Assembly (NCBI GenBank): GCA_038065655.1
Contig: JBBTQO010000009.1
Location: 218 to 64,217, forward strand
Reading direction: 5' to 3'
Origin: Patescibacteria group bacterium
Lineage (GTDB): Bacteria > Patescibacteriota > Minisyncoccia > Phycocordibacterales > WO2-35-19
DNA length: 64,000 nt
Shown here: piece after piece, positions 22,478 through 56,929 of the stretch
Layout of the letters: every line of letters begins with the position of its first letter
Position numbering within the stretch: the first letter of the stretch is position 1
Translations under genes and position numbers: made by a program
The notes under the pieces: model-generated
Database searches by the model: none
What the model was told of the DNA's origin: nothing
The model's input: only the letters and a program-made list of their open reading frames with translations

Positions 22478-22535
22478 TTTCCCTTCCCAGAAGATGACCT
22501 TTGAAGACCCTGCCTCAAAAGGTCATCTTCAAATT
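22478..22535 (+). terminator. Family-B post-stop hairpin with conserved loop (after tpiA)
   Basis: tttcccttcccaGAAGATGACCTTTgaagaccctgcctcaAAAGGTCATCTTCaaatt. Confidence 0.6.
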
Positions 22536-22583
22536 CCTACATTAGTCAAAAATTCGCGACCGCGAAAATCTGGCTAATTTAGA

Positions 22584-22621
22584 ATACACAGATTTCAGAC
22601 GGTCGTCGCTAATCTGTGTAT
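22584..22621 (+). promoter_or_regulatory. 38-nt palindromic operator-like site (ATACACAG-N-GACGGTCGTC-N-CTGTGTAT), copy 3
   Basis: atacacagatttcagacggtcgtcgctaatctgtgtat overlaps the higB start. Confidence 0.55.
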
Positions 22622-22879
22622 GTAATAAAAAACAAAATTATTTCTTTAGTTGATGTTTTGATGGAAAATAATGGCTCGCTTGGAAACCTTGATTCAAAAA
22701 GTTTAAGAAAAGGACTTTTTGAACTAAGATTAATTGGTTCTGTTAATACAAGAATATTTTATTGTTTTCATAAAGACACAATCTATTTATTACACGCAAT
22801 AATTAAGAAAACTCAAAGAACACCAATAAGAGAAATTGAATTTGCTAGAAAAATGAAAAAGATAGTTGGACAATTATAA
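22616..22879 (+). CDS. HigB-like toxin (Gp49/DUF891-like)
   Basis: ...LRKGLFELRLIGSVNTRIFYCFHKDTIYLLHAIIKKTQRTPIREIEFARK matches Gp49-like killer proteins. Overlaps the downstream XRE antitoxin gene. The track start is a GTG inside a palindrome, so the true start may instead be Met at 22661. Confidence 0.65.
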   Translation: MYVIKNKIISLVDVLMENNGSLGNLDSKSLRKGLFELRLIGSVNTRIFYCFHKDTIYLLHAIIKKTQRTPIREIEFARKMKKIVGQL

Positions 22880-23195
22880 CGCATATGTTATCATAAACAA
22901 TATGGAAAAAACATATAAAAAAATAAAACTAATTTCTCATGAAGACTTCAAAAAAAAGCTTTTAAAGAAGCCATCTTTCCGTAAGTACTATGAAGAAACA
23001 AGTTTTGAAAGAGAAATTTTCAAGGCAATTATAAAGGCAAGAGCTCAAAAAGATCTTACCCAAAGAGAGCTAGCGGAAAAAATCGGTGTCAAACAATCAG
23101 CCTTGGCGCGTTTTGAATCTGGCAGAACCAACCCCACACTCGGTTTTCTTAAAAAAGTTGTTTCAGGATTAGGTTTGAATGTGACGGTAAAATAA
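22866..23195 (+). CDS. HigA-like XRE-family antitoxin
   Basis: ...LTQRELAEKIGVKQSALARFESGRTNPTLGFLKKVVSGLGLNV is an HTH_XRE domain. Confidence 0.7.
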   Translation: MDNYNAYVIINNMEKTYKKIKLISHEDFKKKLLKKPSFRKYYEETSFEREIFKAIIKARAQKDLTQRELAEKIGVKQSALARFESGRTNPTLGFLKKVVSGLGLNVTVK

Positions 23196-23210
23196 CTATA
23201 ATTAAAATTT

Positions 23211-24242
23211 ATGAGTATCAAATCAATTGAAGAAGCGAAAATAGAAAAAGGGACAATGGTTTTGATAAGGGTGGATTGGAACCTGCCAATGAAAGATGGG
23301 GTGATTTTAGATACTTCTAGGATTGGGGCTAGTGTTAAAACTATAAATTTTGCTTTGGACAAAGGAGCCAAGATTATAATATTGAGTCATTTAGGAGACG
23401 GCACAGATTCTTTGGAAATTGTGGCGAAGGAAGCAGAAAAATTTTTCCTAGAAACTCAAGTCAAATTTGTGCGAGATCCTTGGAATGCTTCATCGCCAGA
23501 TGGCAAAAAAGTTTTGGAAAATTTGAAAAGCGGAGAAATTGCGGTTATTGAAAACTTAAGATTTTGGATGGAAAAAGAAAATGATAATTCTTTTGCCCAA
23601 AAATTAGCCGAATTTAGTGATATTTATGTGAATGAAGCCTTTTCTGTTTCTCACCGAGAGCACACTTCTATCGTTAAATTGCCAAAACTTTTGCCTCACT
23701 TTGCCGGATTTCACTTTTTAGAAGAATTTAATAAATTATCAGAGGCTCTAAATCCAGAACACCCGTTTCTTTTTATTTTGGGCGGTCTTAAATTTGAAAC
23801 TAAATTGCCGTTGGTAGAGAAATTTTTAAATATTGCCGATGATATTTTTATCGGCGGAGCCAACGCTTTGCCGGCTTCAGGTGAGTCTTTTGCTGATAAT
23901 CCTAAGATAATCTTCCCAGTTGGCGATATTTCAGCTTTGGATGCAAATACCGAAACTTTGGATGTTTTAAAATTGAAAATTGAAAATTGTAGATTCATCT
24001 TATGGAATGGACCATTAGGTAATTATGAAAAAGGGTTTGTGGCTGGCACAGTGGCTTTGGCTAGAATGCTAGCCGAGTCAAATGCCAAGGTTATAGTGGG
24101 CGGGGGAGACACTTTGGCCGTTCTCAAACCAGAAATTAAAGAAGCCATTTCTGTTCATGGTTTTGTATCCACTGCTGGCGGAGCAATGTTGGATTTTCTC
24201 GCCAATGGCACTTTGCCTGGTATTGAAGCTCTTCAGAACTAA
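23211..24242 (+). CDS. pgk: phosphoglycerate kinase (short form)
   Basis: VLIRVDWNLPMKDGVILDTSRIGASVKTINFALDKGAKIIILSHLG is the PGK N-terminal signature. At 343 aa it is shorter than typical PGK. Confidence 0.8.
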   Translation: MSIKSIEEAKIEKGTMVLIRVDWNLPMKDGVILDTSRIGASVKTINFALDKGAKIIILSHLGDGTDSLEIVAKEAEKFFLETQVKFVRDPWNASSPDGKKVLENLKSGEIAVIENLRFWMEKENDNSFAQKLAEFSDIYVNEAFSVSHREHTSIVKLPKLLPHFAGFHFLEEFNKLSEALNPEHPFLFILGGLKFETKLPLVEKFLNIADDIFIGGANALPASGESFADNPKIIFPVGDISALDANTETLDVLKLKIENCRFILWNGPLGNYEKGFVAGTVALARMLAESNAKVIVGGGDTLAVLKPEIKEAISVHGFVSTAGGAMLDFLANGTLPGIEALQN

Positions 24243-24262
24243 AATAGTTCTTGAGAAAGAAT

Positions 24263-24640
24263 CTATTTTAGTTCTGATATTATTTTTTGAGCGTTTTGAA
24301 CAAAGTTTTTTGGGTCTTCTTTGTTTTCAGAATCCAATCCTGCTTTGGCTGGATAAATCCAAACGTGAGCGTGCTCTACCTCGTCTCCCACTATTTTTGA
24401 AAGTATCCATTTTGTTTTAAATGCTTTTTGTTGAGCTAGTGCTATTTTTTTAACAATTTCAAAATATTCTCCAAAATTTTCTACATCCCATACCCAGCGA
24501 CAATGTTTTTTAGGAATAACTTGAACGTGACCAGGAGATTGGGGGTTTATATCAAGAAAGGCCAAAAAATCATTATCCTCATAAACTTTATGACTTGGTA
24601 TTTGACCCTTTACTATTCTACAAAAAATACAATTTTCCAT
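24263..24640 (-). CDS. HIT-family (Hint-like) protein
   Basis: CIFCRIVKGQIPSHKVYEDNDFLAFLDINPQSPGHVQVIPKKH plus an EHAHVWIYP triad variant. Confidence 0.75.
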   Translation of the reverse strand: MENCIFCRIVKGQIPSHKVYEDNDFLAFLDINPQSPGHVQVIPKKHCRWVWDVENFGEYFEIVKKIALAQQKAFKTKWILSKIVGDEVEHAHVWIYPAKAGLDSENKEDPKNFVQNAQKIISELK

Positions 24641-24754
24641 ATTTTAATTTTATCACATTTACGCACAAAATTACAAAAACATTATTTCTGCGTTAGGTCA
24701 TAAGGATAAGGCTCTTGAAACAATGTTTTTGTAATTTTGTGCTAACATTCTTTT

Positions 24755-26437: not shown

Positions 26438-26469
26438 GCATATTGGTATTCTCTTGATGGGAGGTCTTT

Positions 26470-27303: not shown

Positions 27304-27924
27304 ATGAATATTTTTAATGATTCAAATAGTGCTCAAAAAAAGTTCCAAGGTAAAATTGCTGGTTCGAAAGGGGCTGGATATGCTGAAATTTTTTTGAATA
27401 AGGAAGTAGAGAAGTTTCTCAGGGAAAATATATCTGATAAAAATACAAAAATAATTATTTATACTGATGGTTCGTCGCGTGGTAATCCTGGGCCGGGTGG
27501 TTTTGGAGCGATTATTTTTAGTAGAGAAAAAGTTTTGGAAATTGGTGGTAGAGAAGAGCAAACAACAAATAATAGGATGGAAATGAAAGCGGCGATTGAA
27601 GCTCTGAAAATAATTCCAGAAAATTCTTTTGTTGAGTTGCATGCAGATTCTGAGTATTTAATAAAAGGTATTACGATTTGGATTAAAAATTGGCAGAAAA
27701 ATAATTGGCGCACTAAAGATAAGAGGGAAGTTTTAAACCGCGATTTGTGGGAAGAACTTTTAGCACAAACAGAAAATAAAAATATAGAATGGAAAAAAGT
27801 AGTGGGCCACTCAGGTCACGAGTTTAATGATCGTTGTGATGAGATTGCTACAAGTTTTGCCGATGGCTTGAATGTTGATTTTTATAATGGCTCAGAATCA
27901 GGGTATTTCTTGTTTCATCAATGA
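27304..27924 (+). CDS. rnhA: ribonuclease HI
   Basis: IIYTDGSSRGNPGPGGFGAII...TTNNRMEMKAAIEAL...HADSEYLIKGIT.WI.NWQKNNW...VGHSGHEFNDRCDEIA are the canonical RNase H motifs. Confidence 0.85.
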   Translation: MNIFNDSNSAQKKFQGKIAGSKGAGYAEIFLNKEVEKFLRENISDKNTKIIIYTDGSSRGNPGPGGFGAIIFSREKVLEIGGREEQTTNNRMEMKAAIEALKIIPENSFVELHADSEYLIKGITIWIKNWQKNNWRTKDKREVLNRDLWEELLAQTENKNIEWKKVVGHSGHEFNDRCDEIATSFADGLNVDFYNGSESGYFLFHQ

Positions 27925-29528
27925 TTGCTTTTGTCGTTTCATTTGTTATAGGAATCGTTTTTGAAAAAATTTTTGGTTTGGGTTGGAGCATCGCCTTGCT
28001 CATAATTTTAGTTTCAGTAACTTTAAGGGCAATCCTTTGGGGCAATTCTTCAAGAGTTGCCCTTGGGGAAGAGAGTCAAAGACGCCCTTTGAAAGTTGTT
28101 CCCAAAAGGGCGTCTTTGACTTTCTTTGCGATTAGTTTGGCTTTTTCTCTCGGAATTTTGAGAATGAATTTTGTTAGCACTTCTCCTGATACAAATCTTT
28201 ACAAACTTATCAGCCAAAAAATTTCTTTTGAGGCCACTATTTCCGATGAGCCCGATATAAGAGATACTTCGGTGCGTTACATAGTCAGACCAGACTTTTC
28301 TTTGGAATATGTTTCTGAATGCACGGATATTTTCTTGCTAGAAAATTCCTCGTGCTCGGCTCAGTCAGCCTCGCAAGGCATTCATAAACACATTCCCTCG
28401 AAAAGTCTTGTACTTTTGGTCGCAAATAGATATCCTGAATTTCAATATGGCGACAAAATAAAAGTTTCTGGTAAATTAGATTTGCCAAAAAATTTCGTAG
28501 CAGAAAATGGTACAGAATTTGATTACATTTCATATTTAGCCAAAGATAAAATTCACTTTTTGATTTATCGTCCTCAAATTGAAAAAATAGAGGGTTATGA
28601 TGGTAGCAAAATTATTACCTCACTCTATTTACTTAAAAATAAATTCATAGAAAAAATTTCAGCGGTAGTGCCCGAACCAAACGCCTCTCTTTTGGGAGGA
28701 GTTATTTTTGGCGTCAAACAATCCTTGGGCACAGATTTGTTGGATGATTTTAGAAAAGTGGGGCTGATTCATATTGTAGTTCTTTCTGGCTATAACATTA
28801 CAATTATTGCGGTTGGCATATTTTACCTTACTTCTTTCTTAGGTAGAAGAAAGTTAGGTTTTGTTATAGGCGCAGTTTCTATTTTACTTTTTGCTATTAT
28901 GGTGGGCCTTGGCGCCACTGTAATCCGAGCTTGCATTATGTCTCTTATTTCTATTTTGGCGGTTTATCTCGGTCGACCTTCAGACGCATTACGCTTCCTT
29001 TTTATTGCTGGGTTTTTAATGCTCCTTTGGAATCCTTTACTTCTTTTTTATGACCCATCCTTTCAACTTTCTTTTATGGCCACATTGGGATTAATTTTAT
29101 TTTCGCCTTTTATTTTTTCTTTTATCACTGAGCACAAGTTTGGAAAGTTTATTTCAATCAAATTTGGTTTAAGAGAAATAGTTTCCTCCACATTAGCTGT
29201 TCAATTTTTTGTCTTACCTTTACTCATCAAGATGTCAGGTTTCGTTTCTTTAATTTCATTTTTAGTTAATCCAATTGTTTTACCACTAGTGCCGTGGGCG
29301 ATGGCCTTTGGCGCTTTGACTGGCGCACTCGGAATATTTTCTCAAATGCTTTCTTGGCCGTTTGGTGTCATTTCCTATTTTATTTCTCAAATAATAATTT
29401 ATATCACCGAACTTTCCGCAAATATTCCTCTTGCCACTTTGCAAACCGGATCAATTTCAATCTGGCTAATTTTTGTTTGGTATGTGGGTTATGGAGTTTT
29501 GTATAAAAAATTGTCAGCAGAAAAATAG
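27921..29528 (+). CDS. comEC: ComEC/Rec2 competence channel (membrane domain only)
   Basis: 535 aa polytopic. LLGGVIFGVKQSLGTDLLDDFRKVGLIHIVVLSGYNITII is the ComEC 'Competence' domain core. No MBL domain in this ORF. Confidence 0.7.
   Translation: MIAFVVSFVIGIVFEKIFGLGWSIALLIILVSVTLRAILWGNSSRVALGEESQRRPLKVVPKRASLTFFAISLAFSLGILRMNFVSTSPDTNLYKLISQKISFEATISDEPDIRDTSVRYIVRPDFSLEYVSECTDIFLLENSSCSAQSASQGIHKHIPSKSLVLLVANRYPEFQYGDKIKVSGKLDLPKNFVAENGTEFDYISYLAKDKIHFLIYRPQIEKIEGYDGSKIITSLYLLKNKFIEKISAVVPEPNASLLGGVIFGVKQSLGTDLLDDFRKVGLIHIVVLSGYNITIIAVGIFYLTSFLGRRKLGFVIGAVSILLFAIMVGLGATVIRACIMSLISILAVYLGRPSDALRFLFIAGFLMLLWNPLLLFYDPSFQLSFMATLGLILFSPFIFSFITEHKFGKFISIKFGLREIVSSTLAVQFFVLPLLIKMSGFVSLISFLVNPIVLPLVPWAMAFGALTGALGIFSQMLSWPFGVISYFISQIIIYITELSANIPLATLQTGSISIWLIFVWYVGYGVLYKKLSAEK
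28332..28383 (+). repeat. ~52-nt repeat, copy 2 (inside comEC CDS)
   Basis: ttcttgctagaaaattcctcgtgctcggctcagtcagcctcgcaaggcattc. Confidence 0.5.
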
Positions 29529-29646: not shown

Positions 29647-30243
29647 TTATATAACTTCTGTAAAATTCTGTTCAATAACTTGCCAATTCAAATTTTCAAA
29701 AAAATCTTCAATGTATTGTTTTTTACCACTTGGTTGATAATCAGCAACGAAGGCATGTTCCCACATATCCAAAGCTAGGATAGGGGAGCAATTTTGCAGT
29801 TGGCCGATATGTTGTTCATCTATCCAAGTGTTTAAAAGTCTTTTATCTTTTTTATCCCAATAAAGCATAGCCCAACCTATGCCACGAGTGGTTGCCAAAG
29901 ATTTGAAATATGATAGCCATTTATCAAACGAGCCAAATTCTTCTGTAATGACCTTTTTTAATCCACTCGCATCATCCAAATTTTTAGTACCACCGGAAAG
30001 TGATTCAAAATACACCTCATGATTTCGCATACCGTTATATTCAAAACCGAATCTTCTTTGGGTCTCAGCTATAATATAAACATTAGCTTCTAGGTTAGCA
30101 CTCATTTCTTCGATTTTTTCTAAAACCAGATTGGCATTTTTTACATACCCGGCATAAAGTTTTAAATGTTCTTCAATATTTTTTTCTGAAATACCTTTAA
30201 GTTTTGGAATATTAAACTTTTTTTCTTCGAATTTTTGTGCCAT
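29647..30243 (-). CDS. Fe/Mn superoxide dismutase family protein
   Basis: C-terminal ALDMWEHAFVADYQ...NWQVIEQNF is the SOD signature. The N-terminal HHxKHH box is degenerate (EEHLKLY). Confidence 0.6.
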   Translation of the reverse strand: MAQKFEEKKFNIPKLKGISEKNIEEHLKLYAGYVKNANLVLEKIEEMSANLEANVYIIAETQRRFGFEYNGMRNHEVYFESLSGGTKNLDDASGLKKVITEEFGSFDKWLSYFKSLATTRGIGWAMLYWDKKDKRLLNTWIDEQHIGQLQNCSPILALDMWEHAFVADYQPSGKKQYIEDFFENLNWQVIEQNFTEVI

Positions 30244-30285: not shown

Positions 30286-31203
30286 ATGAGCTTTAAATTA
30301 AAAATTAGGCTGATTATTCTAACTATCTTATTATTTCTAACTATCTTTTCATTTTATATTGCCTGGCGAGAGGAGGACAGAGGTATTTTGACAGTGGTTT
30401 TTTTAAACATTGGTCAGGGCGACGCTACCTTTATTGAAGGGCCAAATGGTAACCAAATTCTTATAGACGGCGGTCCGGGTAAGTCGGTACTTAGAGAATT
30501 GTCTAAAGTTATGCCTTTTTATGACCGAAGTATCGATGTTGTTTTGGCAACTCACGCTGACCAAGACCATGTTGGTGGATTGCCGGATGTTTTAAAAAAG
30601 TATCAAGTAAATATTTTTATGGAAACAGGAGTGGCCGGAGAATCTTCTTCTTATGAAGAACTTGAAAAAATAGTTGGAGAAAAAGAAAGTGCGAGTAGGA
30701 TTAAAAAAATATTAGTCAGAAAGGGTATGGAGATTGATTTGGGAGACGGGGCTATTTTGCAAATTCTTTTTCCCGATAGAGATCCCTCGGGCATGGAGAC
30801 CAATACCGCCTCAATTGTGGCCAGACTTGTTTATGGTGAAAATGAATTCCTACTTACTGGTGACTCGCCACAAGTTATTGAAAAATATCTGGTTTCTTTA
30901 GGTAGTCGAGAGTGTCAAGGGCAACCCTTGAAATGCTCCGGTCCCAAAGGGTTGCCCTTGACACTCGAAAGTGACGTGCTCAAAGCTGGGCATCATGGCT
31001 CAAAAACCTCAACCGGCGCAGTCTTCGTTTCAGCTGTTTCTCCCCAATATGTCGTCATTTCTGCAGGTAAAGACAATCGATACGGCCACCCCAATCAAGA
31101 AGTATTAGATATTGTTTCCAATTTTGGAGCCAAAATATTTCGCACCGACGAGTCGGGCCGCATTATATTCCAAAGCGATGGAGTAAATTTGGAAGTTAAA
31201 TAA
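30286..31203 (+). CDS. MBL-fold metallo-hydrolase, ComEC C-terminal-domain-like, carrying an in-frame palindromic insertion
   Basis: N-terminal TM. HADQDHVGGL (HxHxDH). ...VLKAGHHGSKTS. Residues ...RECQGQPLKCSGPKGLPLTLES are encoded by the 57-nt palindrome at 30910..30966. Confidence 0.7.
   Translation: MSFKLKIRLIILTILLFLTIFSFYIAWREEDRGILTVVFLNIGQGDATFIEGPNGNQILIDGGPGKSVLRELSKVMPFYDRSIDVVLATHADQDHVGGLPDVLKKYQVNIFMETGVAGESSSYEELEKIVGEKESASRIKKILVRKGMEIDLGDGAILQILFPDRDPSGMETNTASIVARLVYGENEFLLTGDSPQVIEKYLVSLGSRECQGQPLKCSGPKGLPLTLESDVLKAGHHGSKTSTGAVFVSAVSPQYVVISAGKDNRYGHPNQEVLDIVSNFGAKIFRTDESGRIIFQSDGVNLEVK
30910..30966 (+). mobile_element. in-frame palindromic mini-insertion element, copy 1
   Basis: Perfect 20-bp arms GAGTGTCAAGGGCAACCCTT / AAGGGTTGCCCTTGACACTC around the loop gaaatgctccggtccca. 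57 nt = 19 codons, inside a CDS. Confidence 0.7.
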
Positions 31204-36100: not shown

Positions 36101-36571
36101 ATGAGAGGAAAAGTAAAAAACAGAAACATAGCTAAACCGGATATAATTTTTAATTCTCAAAAAGTTGAGAAGTTTATTAATTATGTAATGCAGGAAGGCA
36201 AGAAAAATACTGCCCGAAAAATAGTTTATACCGCTTTTGATTTAATTAAAGAAAAAGCCAAAGTAGAAAGTCCAATGGAAGTATTTGATACTGCTTTAAA
36301 AAATGCCGGACCAACTATGGAGGTTCGTTCTCGCCGAATTGGGGGTGCTAACTATCAAGTGCCGAGAGAAGTTAGACCAGAGAGAAGATCTTATCTTTCA
36401 ATGAAATGGATTATTGATGCCGCTAAAGCTAAAAAAGGCAAACCAATGGCCGAAAAACTTTCCGAGGAAATAATTTTAGCTTCTAAAAACGAAGGCGAAG
36501 CTATCAAAAAACGCGAAAACGTTCACAAAATGGCTGAATCCAACAAAGCTTTTGCCCATTTTGCGTGGTAA
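36101..36571 (+). CDS. rpsG: 30S ribosomal protein S7
   Basis: Typical S7 sequence, ...[19 protein letters not shown].... Confidence 0.9.
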
Positions 36572-36629
36572 TTTTTTCTTTCAATATTTTGTTGCAGAAG
36601 CACCACTCGGTGTTTTTTGTTTTTTAGTA

Positions 36630-36667
36630 ATACACAGATTACTGACAACCGTCAGTGATGTGTGTAT
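36630..36667 (+). promoter_or_regulatory. 38-nt palindromic operator-like site, copy 1 (overlaps a TATAAT box and abuts the paaX-like start)
   Basis: atacacagattactgacaaccgtcagtgatgtgtgtat. -10 TATAAT at 36668..36673, ATG at 36681. Confidence 0.55.
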
Positions 36668-36680
36668 TATAATAAAAGCA

Positions 36681-37250
36681 ATGATAACGAGTTTAGAGAA
36701 AAAAATTAAAAAGGCAAATATACAAAAAGTTATTTTGGAAACGGTAAAATTAGCTGGAATTATTGGTGTTGGAATAATTGCTCCGAATGTATTGAGGGCA
36801 ATGAAAAAAATGGGGTTCATTACACACCCAAGGCAAATTGAATCAATAAAAAGATCTCGAGATGTTCTTATTGAAAGAGGTTTGCTTGAAAATAAAAACG
36901 GGCAACTAAAGATAACGCAAGGAGGAAAAAGGTATTTATTCAGGTGCTTATCTTTGGGAGACAATAAGGAATTAAACAAAAATAAAAAATGGGATGGCAA
37001 ATGGCGGGTTTTAATTTTTGACATTCCCGAAAGCAGGAGATTTGACAGAACAAATATTCGCCAAGCTCTTATTTCAATCGGATTTATGAGGTTGCAGGAT
37101 AGTGTTTGGATATATCCATATAGTTGTGAAAACATAGTATCTCTTTTAAAAGCTGAAACCGAAACGGAAGGAGATGTTTTGTATATGATTGTGGAAGCAT
37201 TGGAAAATGACGAAGAAGTAAAAAAATACTTCGGACTTAGTAAAAAATAG
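36681..37250 (+). CDS. PaaX-family transcriptional regulator-like protein
   Basis: C-terminal KWDGKWRVLIFDIPESRRFDRTNIRQALISIGFMRLQDSVWIYP matches the PaaX_C signature (WDG.W.lv.fdlPe..r..Rd.lr..L...GFg.l..gvWi.P). Inserted between rpsG and fusA. Confidence 0.65.
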   Translation: MITSLEKKIKKANIQKVILETVKLAGIIGVGIIAPNVLRAMKKMGFITHPRQIESIKRSRDVLIERGLLENKNGQLKITQGGKRYLFRCLSLGDNKELNKNKKWDGKWRVLIFDIPESRRFDRTNIRQALISIGFMRLQDSVWIYPYSCENIVSLLKAETETEGDVLYMIVEALENDEEVKKYFGLSKK

Positions 37251-37260
37251 ATTTTTTGGT

Positions 37261-37298
37261 ATACACAGGTTATTGACGGTCGTCGATGATGTGTGTAT
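37261..37298 (+). promoter_or_regulatory. 38-nt palindromic operator-like site, copy 2 (immediately after the paaX-like stop)
   Basis: atacacaggttattgacggtcgtcgatgatgtgtgtat. Confidence 0.5.
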
Positions 37299-37777: not shown

Positions 37778-39931
37778 ATGAATCGTGATTATCCGTTAGA
37801 GAGAGTTAGAAATTTTGGAATTATAGCCCATATTGATGCCGGCAAGACTACTGTTTCCGAGCGTATTTTGTTTTACACCGGAAGCCAGCACAAGATTGGA
37901 GAAGTGCATGAAGGGGAGACTACCACTGACTGGATGGAACAGGAGCGGGAACGAGGAATTACTATCACCGCGGCCGCCATTACTTGTTTTTGGGCACCAA
38001 CATATTTGGGTGAAGAAAGCAGAAAAAACAAAGATAATAAATATCGTTTTAATATTATTGATACTCCAGGGCACATTGATTTTACAGTGGAAGTGAAAAG
38101 ATCAATGCGTGTTTTGGATGCGGCTGTTTGTGTGTTTGATGGCGTAGCCGGAGTTGAGCCTCAGAGCGAAACCAACTGGCGCTATGCCGAGGAAGCCGCT
38201 GTGCCTCGTCTTTGTTTTATAAATAAATTAGATCGAATTGGCGCTAACTTTGAAAAATCATATAAATCAATTTTGGTCAGACTTTCCAAAAAGGCCGTTC
38301 GTATGCAAATACCGGTTGGTGAGGAAGATAAACACGAAGGACAAATTGATTTGTTAAAAATGAAAGCTTACAAATTTGAAGGTCACTTGGGCGGTAATGT
38401 GATTGAGACAGAAGTTCCTGAGAATTTGAAGGAGGAAGCCTTAAAATACCGAGCTGAATTGGTGGAAAGAATTGTAGAGAACAATGATGAAATGATGAAT
38501 AAATATTTAGCTGGGGAGGAAATTGCTGTCGCCGATTTGAAAAAGATTTTGCGCGAAGCTGTTATTGCTAATAAAATTTTCCCAGTTTTTTGTGGTTCTG
38601 CTTTGAAAAATAAAGGAGTGCAGTTGGTTTTGGATGCCGTCGTTGATTATCTACCTAGTCCACTCGATATGCCGGCTATAAAAGGTATTGATCCGAGAAC
38701 TGGCGAAGAGGTAGAAAGACACCCTTCTGACGAAGAACCATTTTCTGCTTTGGCTTTCAAACTTCAAGCCGATCCTTTCGTGGGACAACTCACATTCTTC
38801 CGGGTTTATTCTGGGACAATTGAGTCAGGCTCTTATATATATAATGCTTCAACTGGTGACAAAGAAAGACTTGGTCGTATCGTGCGATTACAGGCCGATA
38901 AGAGAGAAGAAGTGAAAAAAGTTTTTGCCGGAGAAATTGCCGCCGCTGTCGGTTTGAAAGATACCAAAACTTCAAACACATTTTGTGATGAAAATAATCC
39001 TATTATTTTGGAGACCATCATTTTCCCAGAACCAGTTATTTCACTTCGCATTGAACCTAAGACCAAAGCTGACCAAGAGAGAATGGGTATGGCCCTGCAT
39101 CGCCTTTCAGATGAAGACCCAACCTTTAAAGTTAAAGGTGATCCAGAAACAGGAGAAACTGTTATTTCTGGAATGGGCGAATTACATTTGGATATTATTG
39201 TTGATCGTATGAAAAGAGAATTTAATGTGGAAGCTAATGTCGGTGCGCCACAAGTAGCGTACAAAGAGACTATTACCGGTACGGCCGAAGCCGAAACTAA
39301 ATACATCAAACAGACTGGTGGAAAAGGTCAATACGGTCACGTCAAACTCAATATTAAACCTTTGGAGGCAGAAGTGGAAAATAAGAAAAAACAGAAAAAC
39401 ATTCATCGCGAAGAAGGTTTTGAATTCGTTGATTCCATCAAAGGTGGTGTGATTCCTTCTGAATTTATCCCTGCGGTTGAAAAGGGTGTCAAAGAGGCGA
39501 TGGAGCGAGGTATCGTGGCTGGCTACAAAATGGTGGATATTTCTTGTGAACTTACCTTTGGTTCTTACCATGATGTGGACTCATCTGAAATCGCTTACAA
39601 GATTGCCGCATCGCAAGCATTCCAAGAGGCGGCCAAAAAAGCTAAACCAGTGATTCTTGAACCCATTATGAAATTGGAAGTGGTGGTGCCGGAACAGTTT
39701 ATGGGTGATATTACGGGCCACCTTTCATCTAAACGAGGTTTGATTGAAGGTATGGATGATAGAGCTGGACTCAAAGTGGTTAAAGCTAAAGTGCCTCTTT
39801 CAGAATTATTTGGTTATGTTACAACACTTCGCTCTATGACTGAGGGTCGTGGTAATGCTAACATTGAATTTGATCACTATGCTATCGTGCCGGCTAACAT
39901 AGCTTTGGCTATTGTGGAAGCGAGGAAATAA
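37778..39931 (+). CDS. fusA: elongation factor G
   Basis: NFGIIAHIDAGKTTVSERILFYTG, DTPGHIDF, NKLD. 717 aa. Confidence 0.95.
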   Translation: MNRDYPLERVRNFGIIAHIDAGKTTVSERILFYTGSQHKIGEVHEGETTTDWMEQERERGITITAAAITCFWAPTYLGEESRKNKDNKYRFNIIDTPGHIDFTVEVKRSMRVLDAAVCVFDGVAGVEPQSETNWRYAEEAAVPRLCFINKLDRIGANFEKSYKSILVRLSKKAVRMQIPVGEEDKHEGQIDLLKMKAYKFEGHLGGNVIETEVPENLKEEALKYRAELVERIVENNDEMMNKYLAGEEIAVADLKKILREAVIANKIFPVFCGSALKNKGVQLVLDAVVDYLPSPLDMPAIKGIDPRTGEEVERHPSDEEPFSALAFKLQADPFVGQLTFFRVYSGTIESGSYIYNASTGDKERLGRIVRLQADKREEVKKVFAGEIAAAVGLKDTKTSNTFCDENNPIILETIIFPEPVISLRIEPKTKADQERMGMALHRLSDEDPTFKVKGDPETGETVISGMGELHLDIIVDRMKREFNVEANVGAPQVAYKETITGTAEAETKYIKQTGGKGQYGHVKLNIKPLEAEVENKKKQKNIHREEGFEFVDSIKGGVIPSEFIPAVEKGVKEAMERGIVAGYKMVDISCELTFGSYHDVDSSEIAYKIAASQAFQEAAKKAKPVILEPIMKLEVVVPEQFMGDITGHLSSKRGLIEGMDDRAGLKVVKAKVPLSELFGYVTTLRSMTEGRGNANIEFDHYAIVPANIALAIVEARK

Positions 39932-39989
39932 TTCCCTTCCCAAAGGGTGACCCTTGAAGATCCTGCCCCAAAGGGTCATCCTCAAATTT
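39931..39989 (+). terminator. Family-B post-stop hairpin (after fusA), stem with compensatory changes
   Basis: attcccttcccaAAGGGTGACCCTTgaagatcctgccccaAAGGGTCATCCTCaaattt. Confidence 0.6.
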
Positions 39990-40308
39990 TTATAAAATCC
40001 CGTCGATTTTCTGGAGACCGGAAGAGATGTTCGAATTCAAATTTGGGAAACTTCCCGCCAGAGAAGCTTTACCAAAGAAGAACAGGAAGCCAGAAGACGG
40101 CTCCGGAAAATCACTCGTTTTAAGAAAAAGATTCTGAGAAATCAGGATCAGCAATTTGGCCATTAGCTCTGTTTTGCGAGCGCAGGACAGAGCTAATTCT
40201 TTGTGTTATATTAAATGCGTTATAAGTAATTGCGAGATAAATAATTTTTGAATATTTTTGGGCCCAAAATTTGGGAGTAAAAACATTCAAGAATTATCTC
40301 GCGTAAAT

Positions 40309-49268: not shown

Positions 49269-49377
49269 ATATTTTTTGTTACGTTTTGATTTCTCGCCAT
49301 TTTTCTGGTTATCCACCTTGTTGTTGGTATTAAACGAACCTTTGAATTATAATGTAAAAAACATAATTTAAAGGTTT

Positions 49378-50058
49378 ATGAAACGACTACAAAAGGAAAA
49401 AGAAGAAGCAATAAGAATGAGATTAGGGGGGATGAGTTATTCTCAAATAAAATCAAAAATTAAAGTAAGCAAGAGCTCTCTTAGTGCTTGGCTTGCTAAA
49501 TATCCGTTGTCTGATGAGAGAATTAGAGAATTAAGGGATGTTAATCCTAGAAGAATAGAAAATTACAGAAAAACCATGGCACTCAAATGGCAAGCCAAAC
49601 TAAATGTTGCTCTTGAGAAAGCCAAAAAAGACATTAAACATCTTTCAAAAAGAGAATTATTTATTTTAGGTTTTGCACTATATTGGGCAGAAGGTGGGAA
49701 GACTCGAAAGAGCACATTACATTTTGGAAACACTGACCCCGACATGTTGAAAGTTTTTGTTAAATGGCTTATATTATTGGGAGTTCCTAAGGAGAGACTA
49801 AGGGTCAAACTTCATATGTATAAAGATATGGACAAGGAGAAAACTATTTCTTTTTGGGAAAAAACACTTGGAATTAAATCCGATCAATTTGGAAAACCGT
49901 ATGTCAAAAATTCTTATCTGACGGGGTTGACTTACAAACATGGTTTTGGACACGGTACATGTAATATTGTTTATCATAATACTGAATTGGCAAGCTATGT
50001 TTTGATGGGAATAAGGCATATTATAAATGATTTGATTGATTCAAAAATGCGCGCTTAG
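49378..50058 (+). CDS. HTH + LAGLIDADG-like domain protein
   Basis: 226 aa. N-terminal HTH (GGMSYSQIKSKIKVSKSSLSAWL). LGFALYWAEGGK resembles a LAGLIDADG catalytic motif followed by NTDPDMLKVFVKWLILLGV. Paralog of the partial gene at 1..611. Its last 10 nt overlap the tRNA-Ile(TAT) gene. Confidence 0.5.
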   Translation: MKRLQKEKEEAIRMRLGGMSYSQIKSKIKVSKSSLSAWLAKYPLSDERIRELRDVNPRRIENYRKTMALKWQAKLNVALEKAKKDIKHLSKRELFILGFALYWAEGGKTRKSTLHFGNTDPDMLKVFVKWLILLGVPKERLRVKLHMYKDMDKEKTISFWEKTLGIKSDQFGKPYVKNSYLTGLTYKHGFGHGTCNIVYHNTELASYVLMGIRHIINDLIDSKMRA

Positions 50059-50121
50059 CTCAGTTGGTAGAGCATTCCGCTTATACCGGAACGGTCGGGG
50101 GTTCGAGACCCTCAGCGCGCA
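50049..50121 (+). tRNA. tRNA with anticodon TAT (AUA-decoding tRNA-Ile-like)
   Basis: Acceptor GCGCGCT/AGCGCGC, D-arm GCTC-AGTTGGTA-GAGC, anticodon stem TTCCG/CGGAA with loop CTTATAC, T-loop TTCGAGA, discriminator A. Followed by a terminator at 50135..50160. Confidence 0.65.
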
Positions 50122-50134
50122 CAGCGTTAAGAAA

Positions 50135-50275: not shown

Positions 50276-52471
50276 TCACTCCATATGCACTGTGGTTTTT
50301 TCTGCCAGGTGCTTCGCGAGGAGGGGGTAATTTTTTAATTCAAAATCTTTTTCAATTAAAGTATGAGCTTCCAAACGAGCAGCTTCAACCATTTTGATAT
50401 TGCGGAGCGCTTCCATGGCAAGGTCAGAGACACCCCACTGTTTGGCACCAGCCAAATCACCACTGCCTCTTTGTTGTAAGTCGGCTTCAGCTAACTCAAA
50501 ACCATTATGGGCGGTGGTAAAAGATTTTAGGCGAGAGATAGTTTTTTGGGATTTACTATCGGCGAAAACAAAACAATATGGTTTGTAGGAACTGCGAAGA
50601 ACTCTACCCCGAAGCTGATGCAGTTGAGCTAAGCCAAACCTCTCGGCGTTTTCTATTATGATAACCGTGGCATTGGGTATATTTACTCCCACCTCCACTA
50701 CAGAGGTGGCCACCAAAATATCAATTTTTTTATCCTTGAAATCTCTCATCACATTTTCTTTTTCCATCGGTTTTAATTTACCGGTGATAGCCCCCACTTT
50801 AAATTCAGGGAAAACCTTTTTTTGCAGTCTTTCAGTTTCAGATTTTACTGATTTGGCATTGATAGTGTTTTCTTTATCTGGATCCGGGTCATTTACTCGC
50901 GGGCAAACAACAAAAACTTGCCGACCTGTTTTTAATTCTTCCCTTACTCTTTCATAAATTTCTTCTCTTTGGTGAGGCAAAACAATTTTTGTTTCCGGAA
51001 TTTGTCTGCCAGCCGGTAATTCGTCTAGCAGAGATAAATCCAAATCGCCAAAAATTGTTAAGGCCAGTGTGCGGGGGATGGGGGTAGCGGTCATACTAAG
51101 TAAATGTGGAGCAATATCATGCTTACGACGTAGTTGCATTCTTTGTTTAACACCAAAACGGTGTTGCTCGTCTATGATTATTAGAGCTAAATTTTTAAAT
51201 TGGACGGTTTTTTGAATTAAGGCATGAGTGCCAATCAAAATAGGTATTTCACCATTAGCCACCCATTTTAGAAGTTGTGGTTTAGATATTTTGGTCCAAG
51301 CCAAGGTCGGACCTTTGGGACCGGAGCAGTTTAAGGTCCGACCTTGGCTTGTCTTGGAAGGAAATTTTTTTGCGCCACTGCCGGTAATGAGGCCGACCGA
51401 TAATTTATATTTGGCAAAATATTCTATAAAAGATTCAAAATGTTGCTCGGCCAAAATTTCGGTGGGTGCCATATAGGCAACTTGCAAATTGCCGTATTCT
51501 CTATTTAGAGGAGCGGTAGTTACAGTGGCGAAACTGGCAGTGGCGGCCACCGCTGTTTTACCAGAACCAACATCTCCTTCAAGCAGGCGTGACATTGGGT
51601 GGCCAGTTTTAAAATCGCTCAGTATTACTTCAATTGATTTATTTTGAGCGCTAGTTAAGGGGAAGGGGAATGTATCTATAAAATCTTTTATTTCTTTGTC
51701 TTTTTTTGAAATTAAAAAAGATTTTTCTTTTTGGGCGATATATTTTTCTTTCTGGCGGTCAAGCTGAATAAAAAATATTTCCTCAAAAGCAAATCTTTTT
51801 CTGGCTATTTCGGCGTCTTCTTTTTTGCGTGGAGCATGTATCCAAATGAGAGAGGTTTTGAGTGATGGTAAATTATATTTTTTTAAAATTTCTAGTGGAA
51901 TGGGGTCTATCAAATTGTCTAAAAACTCGGAAGAAAATATTTTTTGGATGGCATGATAAATCCAATTGGTAGAAATACTGCGGCTTTCCGAATAAACGGG
52001 GGAGAGGTTATGATTGTCTTCGCCGGTAAACAAAGAGCCGCTGGTTCCCTCGGGTATTTCTGACACTTTTTCTATTTTTGGATTAGAAAAATAGAGCTCT
52101 CCCTTTCTTTCTGAAATTTTTCCTTCAATCCTCACCAGTGATCCTTCAAAATACATTTTGGCTATGTAAGGCTGAGAAAACCAAATAATTTTAACTTTGC
52201 CAGTAGTGTCTTCTATCTCTGCCGTTGAAATGGCTACTCTGGATTTAAAAGTTTTGGCTGTTTTTAATTTAGAAATTCTACCAAAGACAACGGCATTTTC
52301 CCCGACGTTTAAAAATTCTATCGCTTTTACATCTCCCGCTTCTCCGTATCTGGTGGGGAAATGTCTCAATAAATCTTCGGTTGTTTTGAGACGCATTTTA
52401 GCCAACGCTTTTTTTTGAAAAGGAGAAAGTCTAAAAATTTGTTCAAGCGGAGTATCTGTTTGAATTTTCAT
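50276..52471 (-). CDS. recG: ATP-dependent DNA helicase RecG (with in-frame palindromic insertion)
   Basis: Wedge, helicase motifs (GDVGSGKT, DEQHRFG) and C-terminal domain. ...SQGRTLNCSGPKGPTLAW... is encoded by the palindrome at 51295..51349. Confidence 0.9.
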   Translation of the reverse strand: MKIQTDTPLEQIFRLSPFQKKALAKMRLKTTEDLLRHFPTRYGEAGDVKAIEFLNVGENAVVFGRISKLKTAKTFKSRVAISTAEIEDTTGKVKIIWFSQPYIAKMYFEGSLVRIEGKISERKGELYFSNPKIEKVSEIPEGTSGSLFTGEDNHNLSPVYSESRSISTNWIYHAIQKIFSSEFLDNLIDPIPLEILKKYNLPSLKTSLIWIHAPRKKEDAEIARKRFAFEEIFFIQLDRQKEKYIAQKEKSFLISKKDKEIKDFIDTFPFPLTSAQNKSIEVILSDFKTGHPMSRLLEGDVGSGKTAVAATASFATVTTAPLNREYGNLQVAYMAPTEILAEQHFESFIEYFAKYKLSVGLITGSGAKKFPSKTSQGRTLNCSGPKGPTLAWTKISKPQLLKWVANGEIPILIGTHALIQKTVQFKNLALIIIDEQHRFGVKQRMQLRRKHDIAPHLLSMTATPIPRTLALTIFGDLDLSLLDELPAGRQIPETKIVLPHQREEIYERVREELKTGRQVFVVCPRVNDPDPDKENTINAKSVKSETERLQKKVFPEFKVGAITGKLKPMEKENVMRDFKDKKIDILVATSVVEVGVNIPNATVIIIENAERFGLAQLHQLRGRVLRSSYKPYCFVFADSKSQKTISRLKSFTTAHNGFELAEADLQQRGSGDLAGAKQWGVSDLAMEALRNIKMVEAARLEAHTLIEKDFELKNYPLLAKHLAEKTTVHME
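51295..51349 (-). mobile_element. in-frame palindromic mini-insertion element, copy 2
   Basis: Perfect 19-bp arms CAAGCCAAGGTCGGACCTT / AAGGTCCGACCTTGGCTTG around the loop tgggaccggagcagttt. This loop is the reverse complement of copy 1's loop, i.e. it is the same on the coding strand. Confidence 0.7.
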
Positions 52472-52734: not shown

Positions 52735-52735
52735 C

Positions 52736-53101: not shown

Positions 53102-53164
53102 GTCCCTCGACTTCGCTCGGGATAAATCGAGTGGGGAATAAAAGAGATACTGCCTCGAAAAAAC

Positions 53165-53557: not shown

Positions 53558-53586
53558 TTCGACTACGCTCACTATAAATAATCACA

Positions 53587-54120: not shown

Positions 54121-54125
54121 AGTTT

Positions 54126-54473: not shown

Positions 54474-54490
54474 TTTAAAAATATTTAATT

Positions 54491-55147
54491 ATGCCAAAAG
54501 AAGAAGAAAAAATAATAGAAGAAGAACTTGTCCCGCAAAGCGATAGCGAAGTGGGGGAGACAACTGAAGAGATAGCTATTCCTGTTGTGGCTGAAAAGGA
54601 GGTTTTACCTGCTGATAATTTTAATGCAAATAATAGAGACAACCGAGACAGAAGAAAAAATGAACGTCGACCATCTCGCAGACCAGAGAGAGTCAGACAA
54701 GAATTTGATAATAAAGTTATCAGTGTCAGAAGAGTGACTCGAGTGGTTTCCGGAGGACGCCGATTTAGTTTCAGTATTGCTATGGTGATTGGTGACAGAA
54801 AAGGGAGAGTCGGAGTTGGCATCGGCAAAGCCAGTGATACTCCAGTGGCTATAGACAAAGCAATGCGGGCGGCTAAGAAAAATATCGTCAAAATTTCTTT
54901 GACTAATAAAAATTCTATTGCTCACCCAGTAGAGGCAAAATATTCTAGCATCAGGATTTCTCTGATGCCGGCTCCGGGCAAAGGAGTGATCGCCGGAAGC
55001 GCAGTGAGAGTAGTCTTGGAGTTAGCTGGTATAACTGAAGTTTCTTCTAAAATTCTTTCCAGATCAAAAAATAAATTAAATATTGCCAGAGCGACCATCA
55101 AGGCATTGGGGCAATTAAAAGAAAAAAAGATTAAAATTAAGGAATAA
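54491..55147 (+). CDS. rpsE: 30S ribosomal protein S5 (with N-terminal charged extension)
   Basis: ...VISVRRVTRVVSGGRRFSFSIAMVIGDRKGRVGVGIGKA.... Confidence 0.9.
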   Translation: MPKEEEKIIEEELVPQSDSEVGETTEEIAIPVVAEKEVLPADNFNANNRDNRDRRKNERRPSRRPERVRQEFDNKVISVRRVTRVVSGGRRFSFSIAMVIGDRKGRVGVGIGKASDTPVAIDKAMRAAKKNIVKISLTNKNSIAHPVEAKYSSIRISLMPAPGKGVIAGSAVRVVLELAGITEVSSKILSRSKNKLNIARATIKALGQLKEKKIKIKE

Positions 55148-55164
55148 ATTTTACCCCAATAATC

Positions 55165-55584
55165 ATGCAATTTCATAATTTAAAAAAGAATAAAACAAAC
55201 CGGAAGGCCAAACAAGTTGGTCGTGGCGGTACTCGTGGTAAGACTTCTGGTAGAGGCACTAAAGGTCAAAATGCTAGAGCTGGTAGAAAGAAAAGACCAG
55301 AAATGCGAGACATTATAAAAAGATTGCCCAAACTCAGAGGTAGAGGCAAAAATTCTCTCAAGACTAGATTTGAAGATATTTTTATCGTAAAGCTCTCCGT
55401 TTTGGAAGATAAATTTGGAACTGGGGAAAAAGTTAATCCTAAAGTTTTACTGGAAAAAGGTATTATAAAGACCAGAAATGGTAAAATCCCGGTAGTGAAG
55501 ATTTTGGCGGACAAGGAGATAAAGAAATCTTTTGTCTTTGAAAATGTTAAAATGTCAGAGAAGGTTAAGAAGTTGAACGGATAA
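55165..55584 (+). CDS. rplO: 50S ribosomal protein L15
   Basis: MQFHNLKKNKTNRKAKQVGRGGTRGKTSGRGTKGQNARAG.... It directly follows rpsE; no L30 gene lies between them. Confidence 0.9.
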   Translation: MQFHNLKKNKTNRKAKQVGRGGTRGKTSGRGTKGQNARAGRKKRPEMRDIIKRLPKLRGRGKNSLKTRFEDIFIVKLSVLEDKFGTGEKVNPKVLLEKGIIKTRNGKIPVVKILADKEIKKSFVFENVKMSEKVKKLNG

Positions 55585-55592
55585 AAGAATAA

Positions 55593-56864
55593 ATGAATAA
55601 TTTTATTCACAAATTCAAATTGGTATTAGGGGACAAGATATTGAGAGGTAGAATCTTGTTTACGCTTTTTATTTTGGTCTTATTTCGCTTGATGGCCACT
55701 ATTCCGATTCCGGGTATTGATACTTTAAGATTAGAGCAATTTATTTCTGGTAACGATTTCTTTGGTCTACTCAACATATTTTCTGGAGGTGGTCTTTCCA
55801 ACCTTTCAATTATTATGCTTGGGGTTTCTCCTTATATCACCGCTTCTATTATTATGCAGCTTATGACAGTGATGTTCCCAAAATTGAAAGCTATGTATCA
55901 AGAAGAGGGGGACGCCGGCAGAAAAAAGTTTTCTCAATATTCAAGATTACTGACAGTGCCGCTCGCTTTTATGCAGGGGTATGCTTTTATTATTTTACTT
56001 CAAAATCAAGGTATATTAGCAAAGTTAGCCACCTTTGATTTAGTAACCAATCTTATTGTGATTAGTGTCGGCTCTCTGTTGCTTATGTGGTTGGGTGAGC
56101 TTATAAGTGAATTTGGTATCGGCAACGGTGTTTCTCTTATAATCTTTGCCGGTATCGTTTCAGTTTTACCGGGGGCAATGGGCAAACTTTTGTTTGCTTT
56201 TGACCCATCTCAACTTCCTGCTTATGTTGGTTTTATCGCGGCAGCACTGGTGGTTATTTGGGGCGTGGTGGTTATTACTGAAGCCGAAAGACCAATCCCG
56301 GTAACTTATGCTAAACAAGTGAGAGGCAACAAAGTGTATGGGGGTGTTTCTACTTATTTACCGCTTAGAGTCAACCAGGCCGGAGTAATCCCAATTATCT
56401 TCGCCCTTTCTATATTACTTTTCCCTCAAATGATTGTTCGTTTCTTGGTTAATGTTAATAATGTGATTGTTCAGAAAATTTCAGCTTTCTTCCTTTCAAT
56501 CCTATCAAACCAGTTGTTTTACGGTATTGCTTATTTCTTACTAGTATTTATTTTTACTTACTTTTACACTGCTATTACTTTTGATCCAGATTCAATTTCA
56601 AAAAATTTGCAAAGAAGCGGGGCTTTCATTCCAGGAGTTCGTCCAGGCGTTTCCACATCTGCTTATATCGCCAAAACTCTTTTCCGTTTGACTATGGTTG
56701 GTGCGCTTTTCCTTGGTGTTATAGCTGTTTTGCCTCTAGTAGTAAAATATTTTACAGGTATTAGCGCGGTGGCTATCGGTGGCACCAGCCTTCTCATCGT
56801 AGTCTCGGTGGTCATTGACCTCATCAAAAAAGTGGACGCTCAAATTTCTGCGAGGGAATATTAA
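55593..56864 (+). CDS. secY: preprotein translocase subunit SecY
   Basis: 423 aa, 10-TM SecY pattern. Confidence 0.9.
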   Translation: MNNFIHKFKLVLGDKILRGRILFTLFILVLFRLMATIPIPGIDTLRLEQFISGNDFFGLLNIFSGGGLSNLSIIMLGVSPYITASIIMQLMTVMFPKLKAMYQEEGDAGRKKFSQYSRLLTVPLAFMQGYAFIILLQNQGILAKLATFDLVTNLIVISVGSLLLMWLGELISEFGIGNGVSLIIFAGIVSVLPGAMGKLLFAFDPSQLPAYVGFIAAALVVIWGVVVITEAERPIPVTYAKQVRGNKVYGGVSTYLPLRVNQAGVIPIIFALSILLFPQMIVRFLVNVNNVIVQKISAFFLSILSNQLFYGIAYFLLVFIFTYFYTAITFDPDSISKNLQRSGAFIPGVRPGVSTSAYIAKTLFRLTMVGALFLGVIAVLPLVVKYFTGISAVAIGGTSLLIVVSVVIDLIKKVDAQISAREY

Positions 56865-56876
56865 TCTCATTCTTCA

Positions 56877-56929
56877 TTTCCCAGAAGATGACCTTTGAAT
56901 ATCCTGCCCCAAAAGGTCATCTTCAAATT
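56877..56929 (+). terminator. Family-B post-stop hairpin (after secY)
   Basis: tttcccaGAAGATGACCTTTgaatatcctgccccaAAAGGTCATCTTCaaatt. Confidence 0.6.

Follow-up and report, generated by a model that had tools for sequence, protein, structure and literature searches.

Repetitive extragenic palindromic sequences (REPs) and bacterial interspersed mosaic elements (BIMEs) of Enterobacteria and Pseudomonas are short, many-copy palindromes that lie mostly downstream of genes, are transcribed as stem-loops of the 3' untranslated region (3'-UTR), form mosaics with other repeats and conserve pairing more than sequence. REPs are sorted by a GTAG or a CGTC head (PMC3733652). Rickettsia palindromic elements (RPEs) are found both between genes and in frame in unrelated housekeeping genes, the protein gaining a short peptide at a tolerant position, in a host-dependent bacterium with a small genome, and SPRITE, BOX and RUP of Streptococcus pneumoniae, Correia of Neisseria and QMITE2 of Coxiella are terminator-like or 3'-UTR repeats given to bunching and inter-insertion (PMC10969869). 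Here we analyse a family of palindromic elements, termed family B, in a stretch of 64,000 nucleotides (nt) from a Patescibacteria group bacterium (contig JBBTQO010000009.1 of assembly GCA_038065655.1, positions 218 to 64,217), referred to below as the window. Genomes of these bacteria, which belong to the candidate phyla radiation (CPR), are usually described as small and streamlined. An initial annotation of the window had singled out three hairpins with a conserved loop, after tpiA, fusA and secY, and had proposed a loop-binding factor or a shared regulatory function for them. With a probability of roughly 0.7, we consider these hairpins to be members of a palindromic repeat family that is dispersed and either mobile or recently mobile, and that is known so far only from CPR bacteria of the Zambryskibacteria/Paceibacteria type, to which the window genome also belongs. 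The family is best read as REP/RPE-like and as undescribed for CPR bacteria in the literature searched, where full-text searches brought up no account of such repeats for this group. It shares with REP/BIME the traits given above except the head tetranucleotide, with RPEs the in-frame location in unrelated genes and the absence from orthologs, and with SPRITE, BOX, RUP, Correia and QMITE2, to which effects on the stability, termination and processing of mRNA are ascribed, the 3'-UTR location and the bunching; with intrinsic terminators it shares a GC-containing hairpin downstream of a gene.

Reading of the sequences located the three hairpins where they had been reported, after the stop codons of open reading frames (ORFs) whose products match TIM (triosephosphate isomerase), EF-G and SecY in Pfam. 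In each, a pyrimidine leader that ends in TTCCCA precedes a 12-13 bp stem around a 15-nt loop, followed by the tail AAATT; predicted folding energies run from -19 to -22.5 kcal/mol, at z-scores between -2.7 and -5.4. The tpiA copy (22478-22538, plus strand) follows the TAA stop codon at 22475-22477, with leader TTTCCCTTCCCA beginning at the next base, stem 22490-22502/22518-22530, loop GAAGACCCTGCCTCA (22503-22517) and the AAATT tail; it folds at -22.5 kcal/mol (z -4.5) and scores 84.5 bits against R1, a covariance model built from an alignment of 20 copies (A1). The fusA copy (39931-39991, plus strand; 81.3 bits) follows the stop at 39929-39931 with TTCCCTTCCCA, and its stem (39944-39955/39971-39982), a GAGGGT-type variant with one G.U pair, encloses the loop GAAGATCCTGCCCCA (39956-39970). 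The secY copy (56872-56932, plus strand; 85 bits) is separated from the stop at 56862-56864 by 9 extra nt, after which come TCATTTCCCA and the stem 56884-56896/56912-56924 around the loop GAATATCCTGCCCCA, the stem beginning 19 nt past the stop. A location directly after the stop, as first described, thus applies to tpiA and fusA, whose leaders start at the next base, and not to secY; likewise, the loop consensus first proposed fits the tpiA and fusA loops, and the secY loop differs from it by one base (G to T). A search of the window for the loop motif GAAGAYCCTGCCYCA with up to two mismatches gave four matches against 0.18 expected, a number that none of 100 shuffles reached; three were the reported hairpins and one was a new copy. 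The original set of three is thus real and incomplete, the window having eight members of the family.

The family unit comprises a pyrimidine leader ending in YCCCA, a 12-13 bp stem, a C-rich, G-poor loop of the form GAA...YCCCA and the tail AAATT. Across the 20 copies of A1, 99.2% of cells pair and 6 of the 13 pairs show compensatory changes, values that were reached in 0 of 500 shuffles, and the hairpins are genuine and evolutionarily maintained. Related loci are denoted below by L numbers; at the orthologous secY site, one stem pair passes from A-U (window, L080 and L115) through an A.G mismatch (L097) to C-G (L014), a stepwise compensatory series. The stem arms are themselves near-palindromes of the AAGGGTSACCCTT type, with 85% of cells pairing within the arm and columns 17/25 and 47/55 covarying four ways across both arms, so that the element can equally be described as a ~28-nt unit (YCCCA, palindrome, then RAA) repeated in tandem. 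In the unpaired segments of the sense strand C predominates over G (C 252, G 72; C:G about 3.5:1). The copies were also checked by eye for a strand asymmetry of G.U versus A.C pairs, and held too few non-canonical pairs, which ran in both directions. Among the copies compared, a given loop can sit on different stems and a given stem can carry different loops, the L080 secY copy carries an 8-nt duplication in its loop, and in the wider family only GAA...YCCCA of the loop is kept, loops being duplicated, inverted or replaced. What had been seen as an unusually conserved loop is mostly a matter of recent common ancestry within one subfamily of the dispersed repeat, and the near-identical loops of the three window copies would express this shared descent, and not necessarily a loop-binding regulator.

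An exact loop-pattern scan of 185,579 species genomes (596 Gb) returned 79 loci, of which 15 were true hairpins and the others resembled stemless chance matches. All 15 hairpins came from metagenome-assembled genomes (MAGs) of Patescibacteria, assigned to Zambryskibacteria, to Paceibacterota or to 'Patescibacteria group', or labelled Saccharibacteria (four hairpin loci in three MAGs). A metagenome scan added 28 loci, mostly from Hainich groundwater and Joint Genome Institute (JGI) samples. Across related MAGs and metagenomes, R1 gave 69 matches at 44 distinct loci, which became ~45 with the later addition of L115/L117. Viral contigs gave no exact match to family B or to its composite with the second repeat, family A, described below, and a phage-borne element was rejected on this result. 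A known RNA family was likewise rejected, since Rfam 15 at the gathering threshold yields only tRNAs and transfer-messenger RNA (tmRNA) in the window, and with E-values of up to 10 the region 56850-57020 gave only chance microRNA and small nucleolar RNA matches.

The family has spread at the DNA level into both intergenic and coding DNA. Eleven of the ~45 loci lie in frame inside long ORFs, four in the sense and seven in the antisense orientation, a ratio as expected from random orientation with a filter for an intact reading frame, given that a typical copy has one of its three sense frames and two of its three antisense frames open. In the window itself the in-gene members number four of eight (three in comEC and one in recG), and among the relatives antisense in-frame copies are found in lepA (L042), in a truB-like ORF (L047) and in other long ORFs. 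The in-gene copies found leave the reading frame intact, and the Gly/Pro-rich linkers that they encode fall in tolerant loops. In Pfam alignments the host domains exceed the profile length by 27-41 residues, which is what insertions would give. A tie to highly expressed genes or to gene ends, as proposed from the three hairpins, was not supported: about a quarter of the loci lie within genes, and one window copy is upstream of rpsO, on the other strand.

In recG, the insert (..TLNCSGPKGPTLA.. and variants) was found in 18 of 121 close RecG sequences (65-92% identical); the remaining 103 lack it and show instead a loop of five residues (TNKEK-like) or other small inserts, and on a neighbour-joining tree its distribution requires at least nine state changes. 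The recG DNA of filled alleles is 76-84% identical to the window gene. Five filled alleles all keep a 19-pair stem, perfect in four and with one mismatch and two G.U pairs in L119; the outer stem (CAAGCCAAGG/CCTTGGCTTG) is fixed and the inner part varies between alleles. In L118 three positions per inner arm are changed and fully compensated, with the palindromy within each arm kept despite altered amino acids. The L119 copy has its loop inverted, and L120 carries, in place of the loop, an entire B-like element like that at L078:1149, a case of nesting. The close RecG homologs (P0001-P0120) also carry many other short inserts rich in Gly, Ser, Ala or Arg at more than 10 positions, such as SARGGSASGG, PASAKGYGGQG, TLRLRSGQAT, IGRQSFSEGG and SPGLSFGEAG, and the protein sequences suggest that further small in-frame element families are common in these genomes.

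The secY-adk junction was also compared between related genomes. A composite of B with a family-A element is present in the window and L080, in L115/L117 and in L014/L097, and family B is missing from L112, L113, L114, L116 and L119. Three of the latter have plain spacers (83 nt in L112, 65 nt in L113 and 14 nt in L119), L116 has an unrelated AT-rich hairpin and L114 has hairpins of the family-A type. In the SecY tree every filled group has a closer relative without the element. That close relatives (SecY 88-92% identical) lack the element at the 3' end of secY does not fit the conserved, shared regulator envisaged in the initial annotation. At fusA, a hairpin of another, unique kind comes after the ortholog in L024, whose MAG has B elements after other genes. 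L024 was not accepted as a clean empty site for the fusA copy, as synteny runs to the fusA stop and the downstream DNA is unrelated; nor was L082 of use as a comparison, having a different gene upstream of pnp. The notion that the element supplies the stop codon was also discarded: the TGA codons within the element fall in the 5' arm and where the loop begins, the real stops precede the leader, and the C-terminus of fusA is identical in the window and L024. The closest relative of the window, L080 (RecG 92% identical), differs from it by a local inversion (window 49332-50123, L080 12201-12992) carrying an ORF (49378-50058) and a tRNA, and has ~2.6 kb of extra DNA between rpsH and recG (L080 7071-9923), including a faint LAGLIDADG-like ORF.

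Several observations weigh against a mobile family. Neither a transposase, nor a REP-associated tyrosine transposase (RAYT, of the IS200/IS605-like Y1 kind), nor any other mobilising gene was found by Pfam among most of the long ORFs in these 64 kb of genome, and all-against-all ORF clustering of 37 loci revealed no recurrent neighbour except paralogous translational GTPases; an adjacent mobilising gene was rejected on these two grounds. The filled/empty comparisons at recG and secY-adk showed no target-site duplication and no terminal inverted repeat beyond the hairpin itself, and at recG the filled allele replaces 15 nt, with no clean insertion. All loci except those reached via recG and secY were picked for carrying the loop motif, so that loop conservation is overstated and the context statistics are biased. 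The patchy distribution could stem from homologous allele exchange between strains without transposition, and the tight stop spacing, the sense bias of intergenic copies (below) and the stem pairing inside genes could mean a selected host function. As for how copies might have spread, a trans-acting, hairpin-specific enzyme (HUH/RAYT-like) or microhomology-guided gene conversion in naturally competent hosts would be candidates. Of recombinases and transposases, the Pfam annotation of the window brought up only one of the former, a Xer-type tyrosine recombinase; the window also encodes ComEC and has genes for type IV pili. The empty recG allele carries TTCCCTTCCAAA, an 11/12 match to the leader of the fusA copy (TTCCCTTCCCAA), as well as CCAAAAT, which resembles the tail; in this single case the sequence hints at microhomology-guided replacement.

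Set beside the known classes, the family lacks the defining features of REP, MITE (miniature inverted-repeat transposable element), RPE, intrinsic terminator, attC and DNA uptake sequence alike. Neither GTAG/CTAC nor CGTC/GACG occurs at an end of any of the 20 aligned copies, where YCCCA and AAATT stand instead; with no head tetranucleotide, and with 11 of the ~45 loci in ORFs and hence not extragenic, membership of the RAYT-associated REPs was rejected. Unlike REPs, the window family has a large conserved loop (14-19 nt), palindromic arms and a quarter of its loci in coding sequence. RPEs measure ~100-150 bp, in contrast to a core of 41-65 nt here, and belong to another phylum with no evident sequence relationship, a distinction that we draw from their description; moreover, intergenic copies of family B hold a strict post-stop position and sense orientation, unlike RPEs. 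SPRITE, BOX, RUP, Correia and QMITE2 have terminal inverted repeats with duplications, or U-tract terminators, which were not found here, and are rarely in frame in genes. A MITE was rejected on the recG and secY-adk comparisons, which gave no target duplication and the hairpin as the sole inverted repeat. A DNA uptake sequence, suggested by the ComEC and pilus genes, was rejected because the arms are never single: all eight matches to the arm motif in the window lie within elements and none is solitary, whereas a DNA uptake sequence is a short motif abundant by itself, of which inverted pairs make up only a part. The core sites of integron attC, R'' (RYYYAAC) and R' (GTTRRRY), flank an imperfect palindrome at the end of a gene cassette. 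These core motifs are absent from the aligned copies, the neighbours are core housekeeping genes and copies are also found inside genes, and attC was rejected in turn.

The initial annotation was right to set the hairpins apart from canonical intrinsic terminators, in which a G+C-rich stem with a short loop (3-8 nt) runs directly into a series of U. They have a 15-nt loop and a tail CAAAUUYY, and a terminator scan listed none of the three copies (15-nt loop; three A's before a short U/C run). Terminator-like sites in the window as a whole were at the level of shuffled sequence (17 versus 15.7, and 22 versus 19.1). A canonical terminator was rejected on loop size, tail and scan results. A sister subfamily (L042:3462, after lepA, and L080:129) has CUUUUU directly after the stem, and the superfamily thus shades into terminator-like forms.

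Post-stop copies account for 23 of the ~45 loci, all on the strand of the upstream gene, and in 18 of these the 12-nt leader starts between -5 and +7 nt from the stop and the stem lies 7-19 nt downstream of it. The antisense equivalent of this arrangement was limited to 2-4 candidate loci. The sense and position bias of the intergenic copies suggests some RNA-level constraint. Given that orientation inside genes looks free apart from frame, we attribute the intergenic bias to selection and not to the mechanism of insertion. Post-stop copies would fold in the mRNA as a stable 3'-UTR stem-loop, and it is probably as such that the intergenic copies are kept. This stem-loop might act as a barrier to 3'-to-5' exonucleases or as a weak or factor-dependent terminator. 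A stem 10-14 nt past the stop sits at the mRNA channel entrance of a terminating ribosome, and Liang, Rudd and Deutscher reportedly found in 2015 that E. coli REP hairpins within 15 nt of the stop stall ribosomes and trigger tmRNA action. The stop-codon spacing reported for those ribosome-stalling REPs equals the spacing here, and a stem-loop at the edge of the terminating ribosome could serve as a brake on translation termination, as reported for the E. coli elements.

Family B is often part of a mosaic, a second repeat following it in at least 10 of the 23 post-stop loci. This second repeat, family A, begins with the box [CAT][GA]ACC[CT]CA[CT]CCC, continues with an optional hairpin of wholly different sequence between copies, and ends with CCCCTC(A/T)CCTT-loop-AAGG(T/A)GAGGGG, a hairpin rich in G and C after which comes AGAAA. 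The family-A type element fused to the secY copy (56930-56988, plus strand) has the box CGACCCCACCCC, the variable hairpin ATCCGACTTGCGCCGGAT and a second hairpin CCCCTCACCTT-GCG-AAGGTGAGGG, giving a composite with B of ~125 nt. Another, fused to the fourth window copy of family B (12485-12543, minus strand), has the same conserved flanks around another variable hairpin, ACTTGCCCCACGGCAAGT. The window further contains family-A copies at 10904-10945, 15278-15313, 17660-17703 and 21618-21653, all on the plus strand. At least three window copies lie just past stop codons (after 15253, 17657 and 21615) with C-rich leaders. The B-plus-A composite of the window is 96% identical over 126 nt to that of L020, which is from the same MAG as L024, where fusA is 81% identical to the window gene; judged by these two sequence comparisons, the element is more conserved than the surrounding genes. 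In L024 a third hairpin family also follows B and A. Like the family-A copies after 15253, 17657 and 21615, the third family (after 37250) sits right past a stop with no U-tract. The 5' arm of family A (TCACCT) resembles the 16S rRNA 3' tail and its 3' arm is Shine-Dalgarno-like. The third family (ATACACAGNTTNNTGACGGTCGTCGNTRATSTGTGTAT) has copies at 22579-22621, 36614-36672 and 37242-37298 in the window and at 6882-6929 in L024, and is common to other MAGs; it sits downstream of the tpiA B element and flanks an ORF with a PaaX-like/Cas2-like domain (36552-37250).

An explanation that goes beyond a REP/RPE-like repeat would be a distinct hairpin cassette that lacks a transposase signature, terminal repeats and target duplication, retains a four-way symmetric stem even inside essential genes, has an inner module that swaps, inverts and nests, and spreads by hairpin- or microhomology-guided gene conversion in naturally competent CPR bacteria, as the leader-like sequence in the empty recG allele may hint, and whose sense copies 10-14 nt past stops have been co-opted as a non-canonical signal coupling translation termination to 3'-end formation or ribosome stalling. 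We regard it as possible but unlikely. Still less likely is a dedicated class of 3'-end regulatory RNA, that is, non-canonical terminators or processing or stability sites kept by host selection, in which a KH-domain factor such as RNase Y, PNPase or NusA would read the C-rich loop. The strong sense bias and tight stop spacing would be accounted for in this way, as would the covariation of the stem with its stepwise compensation at the orthologous secY site and the C-rich, G-poor composition of the unpaired segments, and RNase Y, RNase J and PNPase are all encoded in the window. However, such a class would not be expected to have a quarter of its loci in coding sequence in both orientations or a copy upstream of rpsO on the other strand, nor to be missing from close relatives at secY-adk, where some spacers of 14-83 nt lie in an apparent single operon; the loop, moreover, varies, inverts or is replaced across the wider family, and there is no U-tract.

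The C-richness could be read instead as a sign of portable Rho-type terminator modules, a reading that we hold to be improbable. Here the leader, the C-rich loop and the C-rich box CGACCCCACCCC would form a rut-like site exposed where the ribosome stops, the hairpins being spacers, much as a hairpin serves as a spacer in the rutA-boxB-rutB arrangement of phage lambda tR1. The C:G ratio of the unpaired segments, the placement of copies immediately past stops in the C-rich orientation only, the frequent fusion of family B to the C-rich family-A box and the similar post-stop position of family-A hairpins with C-rich leaders are all in keeping with this. A tblastn search with E. coli Rho (an approximate query) brought no match from the 510 kb of related DNA covered, which is only a fraction of each genome. 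Against the Rho reading, the single-stranded C-rich stretches fall short of the length of known rut sites, and strict stem maintenance and the in-gene copies are left without explanation. Least probable of all are DNA-level binding sites, in which the palindromic arms (AAGGGTSACCCTT) would be two dimer-type sites 28 bp apart for a recombinase, nucleoid-associated protein or uptake receptor: the within-arm palindromy is real and survives the changes of the inner arms in recG, and the Xer-type recombinase, ComEC and pilus genes are at hand, but the arms never occur singly as DNA uptake sequences do, the G.U pairs of some copies and the intergenic strand bias point to RNA or single-strand structure, the adjacent genes are unrelated housekeeping genes, and the attC core motifs are absent from the copies.

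If the hairpins are indeed copies of a dispersed repeat family, several families of GC-rich hairpins would shape the 3' ends of CPR genes and add linkers to proteins such as RecG, LepA and ComEC, which would affect how genes are called, how proteins are aligned and how the phylogenomics of the group turns out. For groundwater metagenomes, the elements would then offer natural markers with which to study population genetics at strain level, and their placement at the edge of the terminating ribosome would give a handle on CPR transcript ends, where canonical terminators look rare. They would also show what keeps short hairpins paired over evolution, even in coding sequence.

The five remaining members of family B in the window lie outside post-stop positions. 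The fourth full copy (12544-12604, minus strand) is 33 nt from the start codon of rpsO (12637, plus strand; S15 by Pfam) and follows no ORF of its own strand. With one A.C mismatch, it folds at -12.2 kcal/mol and, at 71.7 bits, has the lowest score among the full copies. A divergent member (28017-28076, minus strand; 46.5 bits) lies antisense and in frame in the ORF for the comEC membrane domain (27921-29528), with leader TCTCTTCCCCA, stem AAGGGCAACTCTT/AAGGATTGCCCTT and loop GAAGAATTGCCCCA. It is adjoined in the same ORF by a long-stem relative (28066-28129, plus strand; 24-25 bp, loop GAAAGTTGTTCCCA; 28.1 bits) in sense and in frame, and the DUF4131 match of this ORF extends over 204 residues versus 163 profile positions. 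A second long-stem relative (30910-30966, plus strand; 20 bp, loop GAAATGCTCCGGTCCCA), in sense and in frame in the comEC metallo-beta-lactamase ORF (30286-31203), encodes ..ECQGQPLKCSGPKGLPLTL.. and folds at -41.1 kcal/mol (30.5 bits). The recG member (51297-51351, minus strand; 19 bp, loop AAACTGCTCCGGTCCCA) is likewise in sense and in frame in its gene (50276-52471, minus strand), encodes ..SQGRTLNCSGPKGPTLA.. and folds at -38.7 kcal/mol (22.2 bits). comEC is divided between two ORFs, for the membrane/competence part and the metallo-beta-lactamase part, with three hairpin insertions altogether, and a superoxide dismutase gene (29647-30243) lies between the two on the opposite strand.

A few further features of the window were recorded. 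A 16-bp hairpin (ATTAGCTCTGTTTTGC...GCAGGACAGAGCTAAT) at 40162-40197 precedes the pnp start by ~60 nt and may form part of a leader comparable to the autoregulatory one of pnp in E. coli. A direct repeat of 82 nt (89% identical; 1132-1213 and 2229-2310) lies in two minus-strand ORFs, one without a Pfam match (1139-1603) and one with an RNHCP domain (2219-2515), which, from their sequences, probably share a paralogous N-terminus. Tandem repeats with a 12-nt period (GGAGTAGGTGTG-like) occupy 4117-4178 and 4639-4700 within a minus-strand ORF of 976 residues (2556-5486) with weak matches to SH3 and TIG; read on the coding strand, the repeats would yield linkers rich in Pro and Thr. Finally, the phosphoglycerate kinase ORF (23211-24242) has 343 codons for amino acids and a Pfam match in two stretches, the best covering profile positions 7-216 of 379, and this gene may be unusually short or interrupted.

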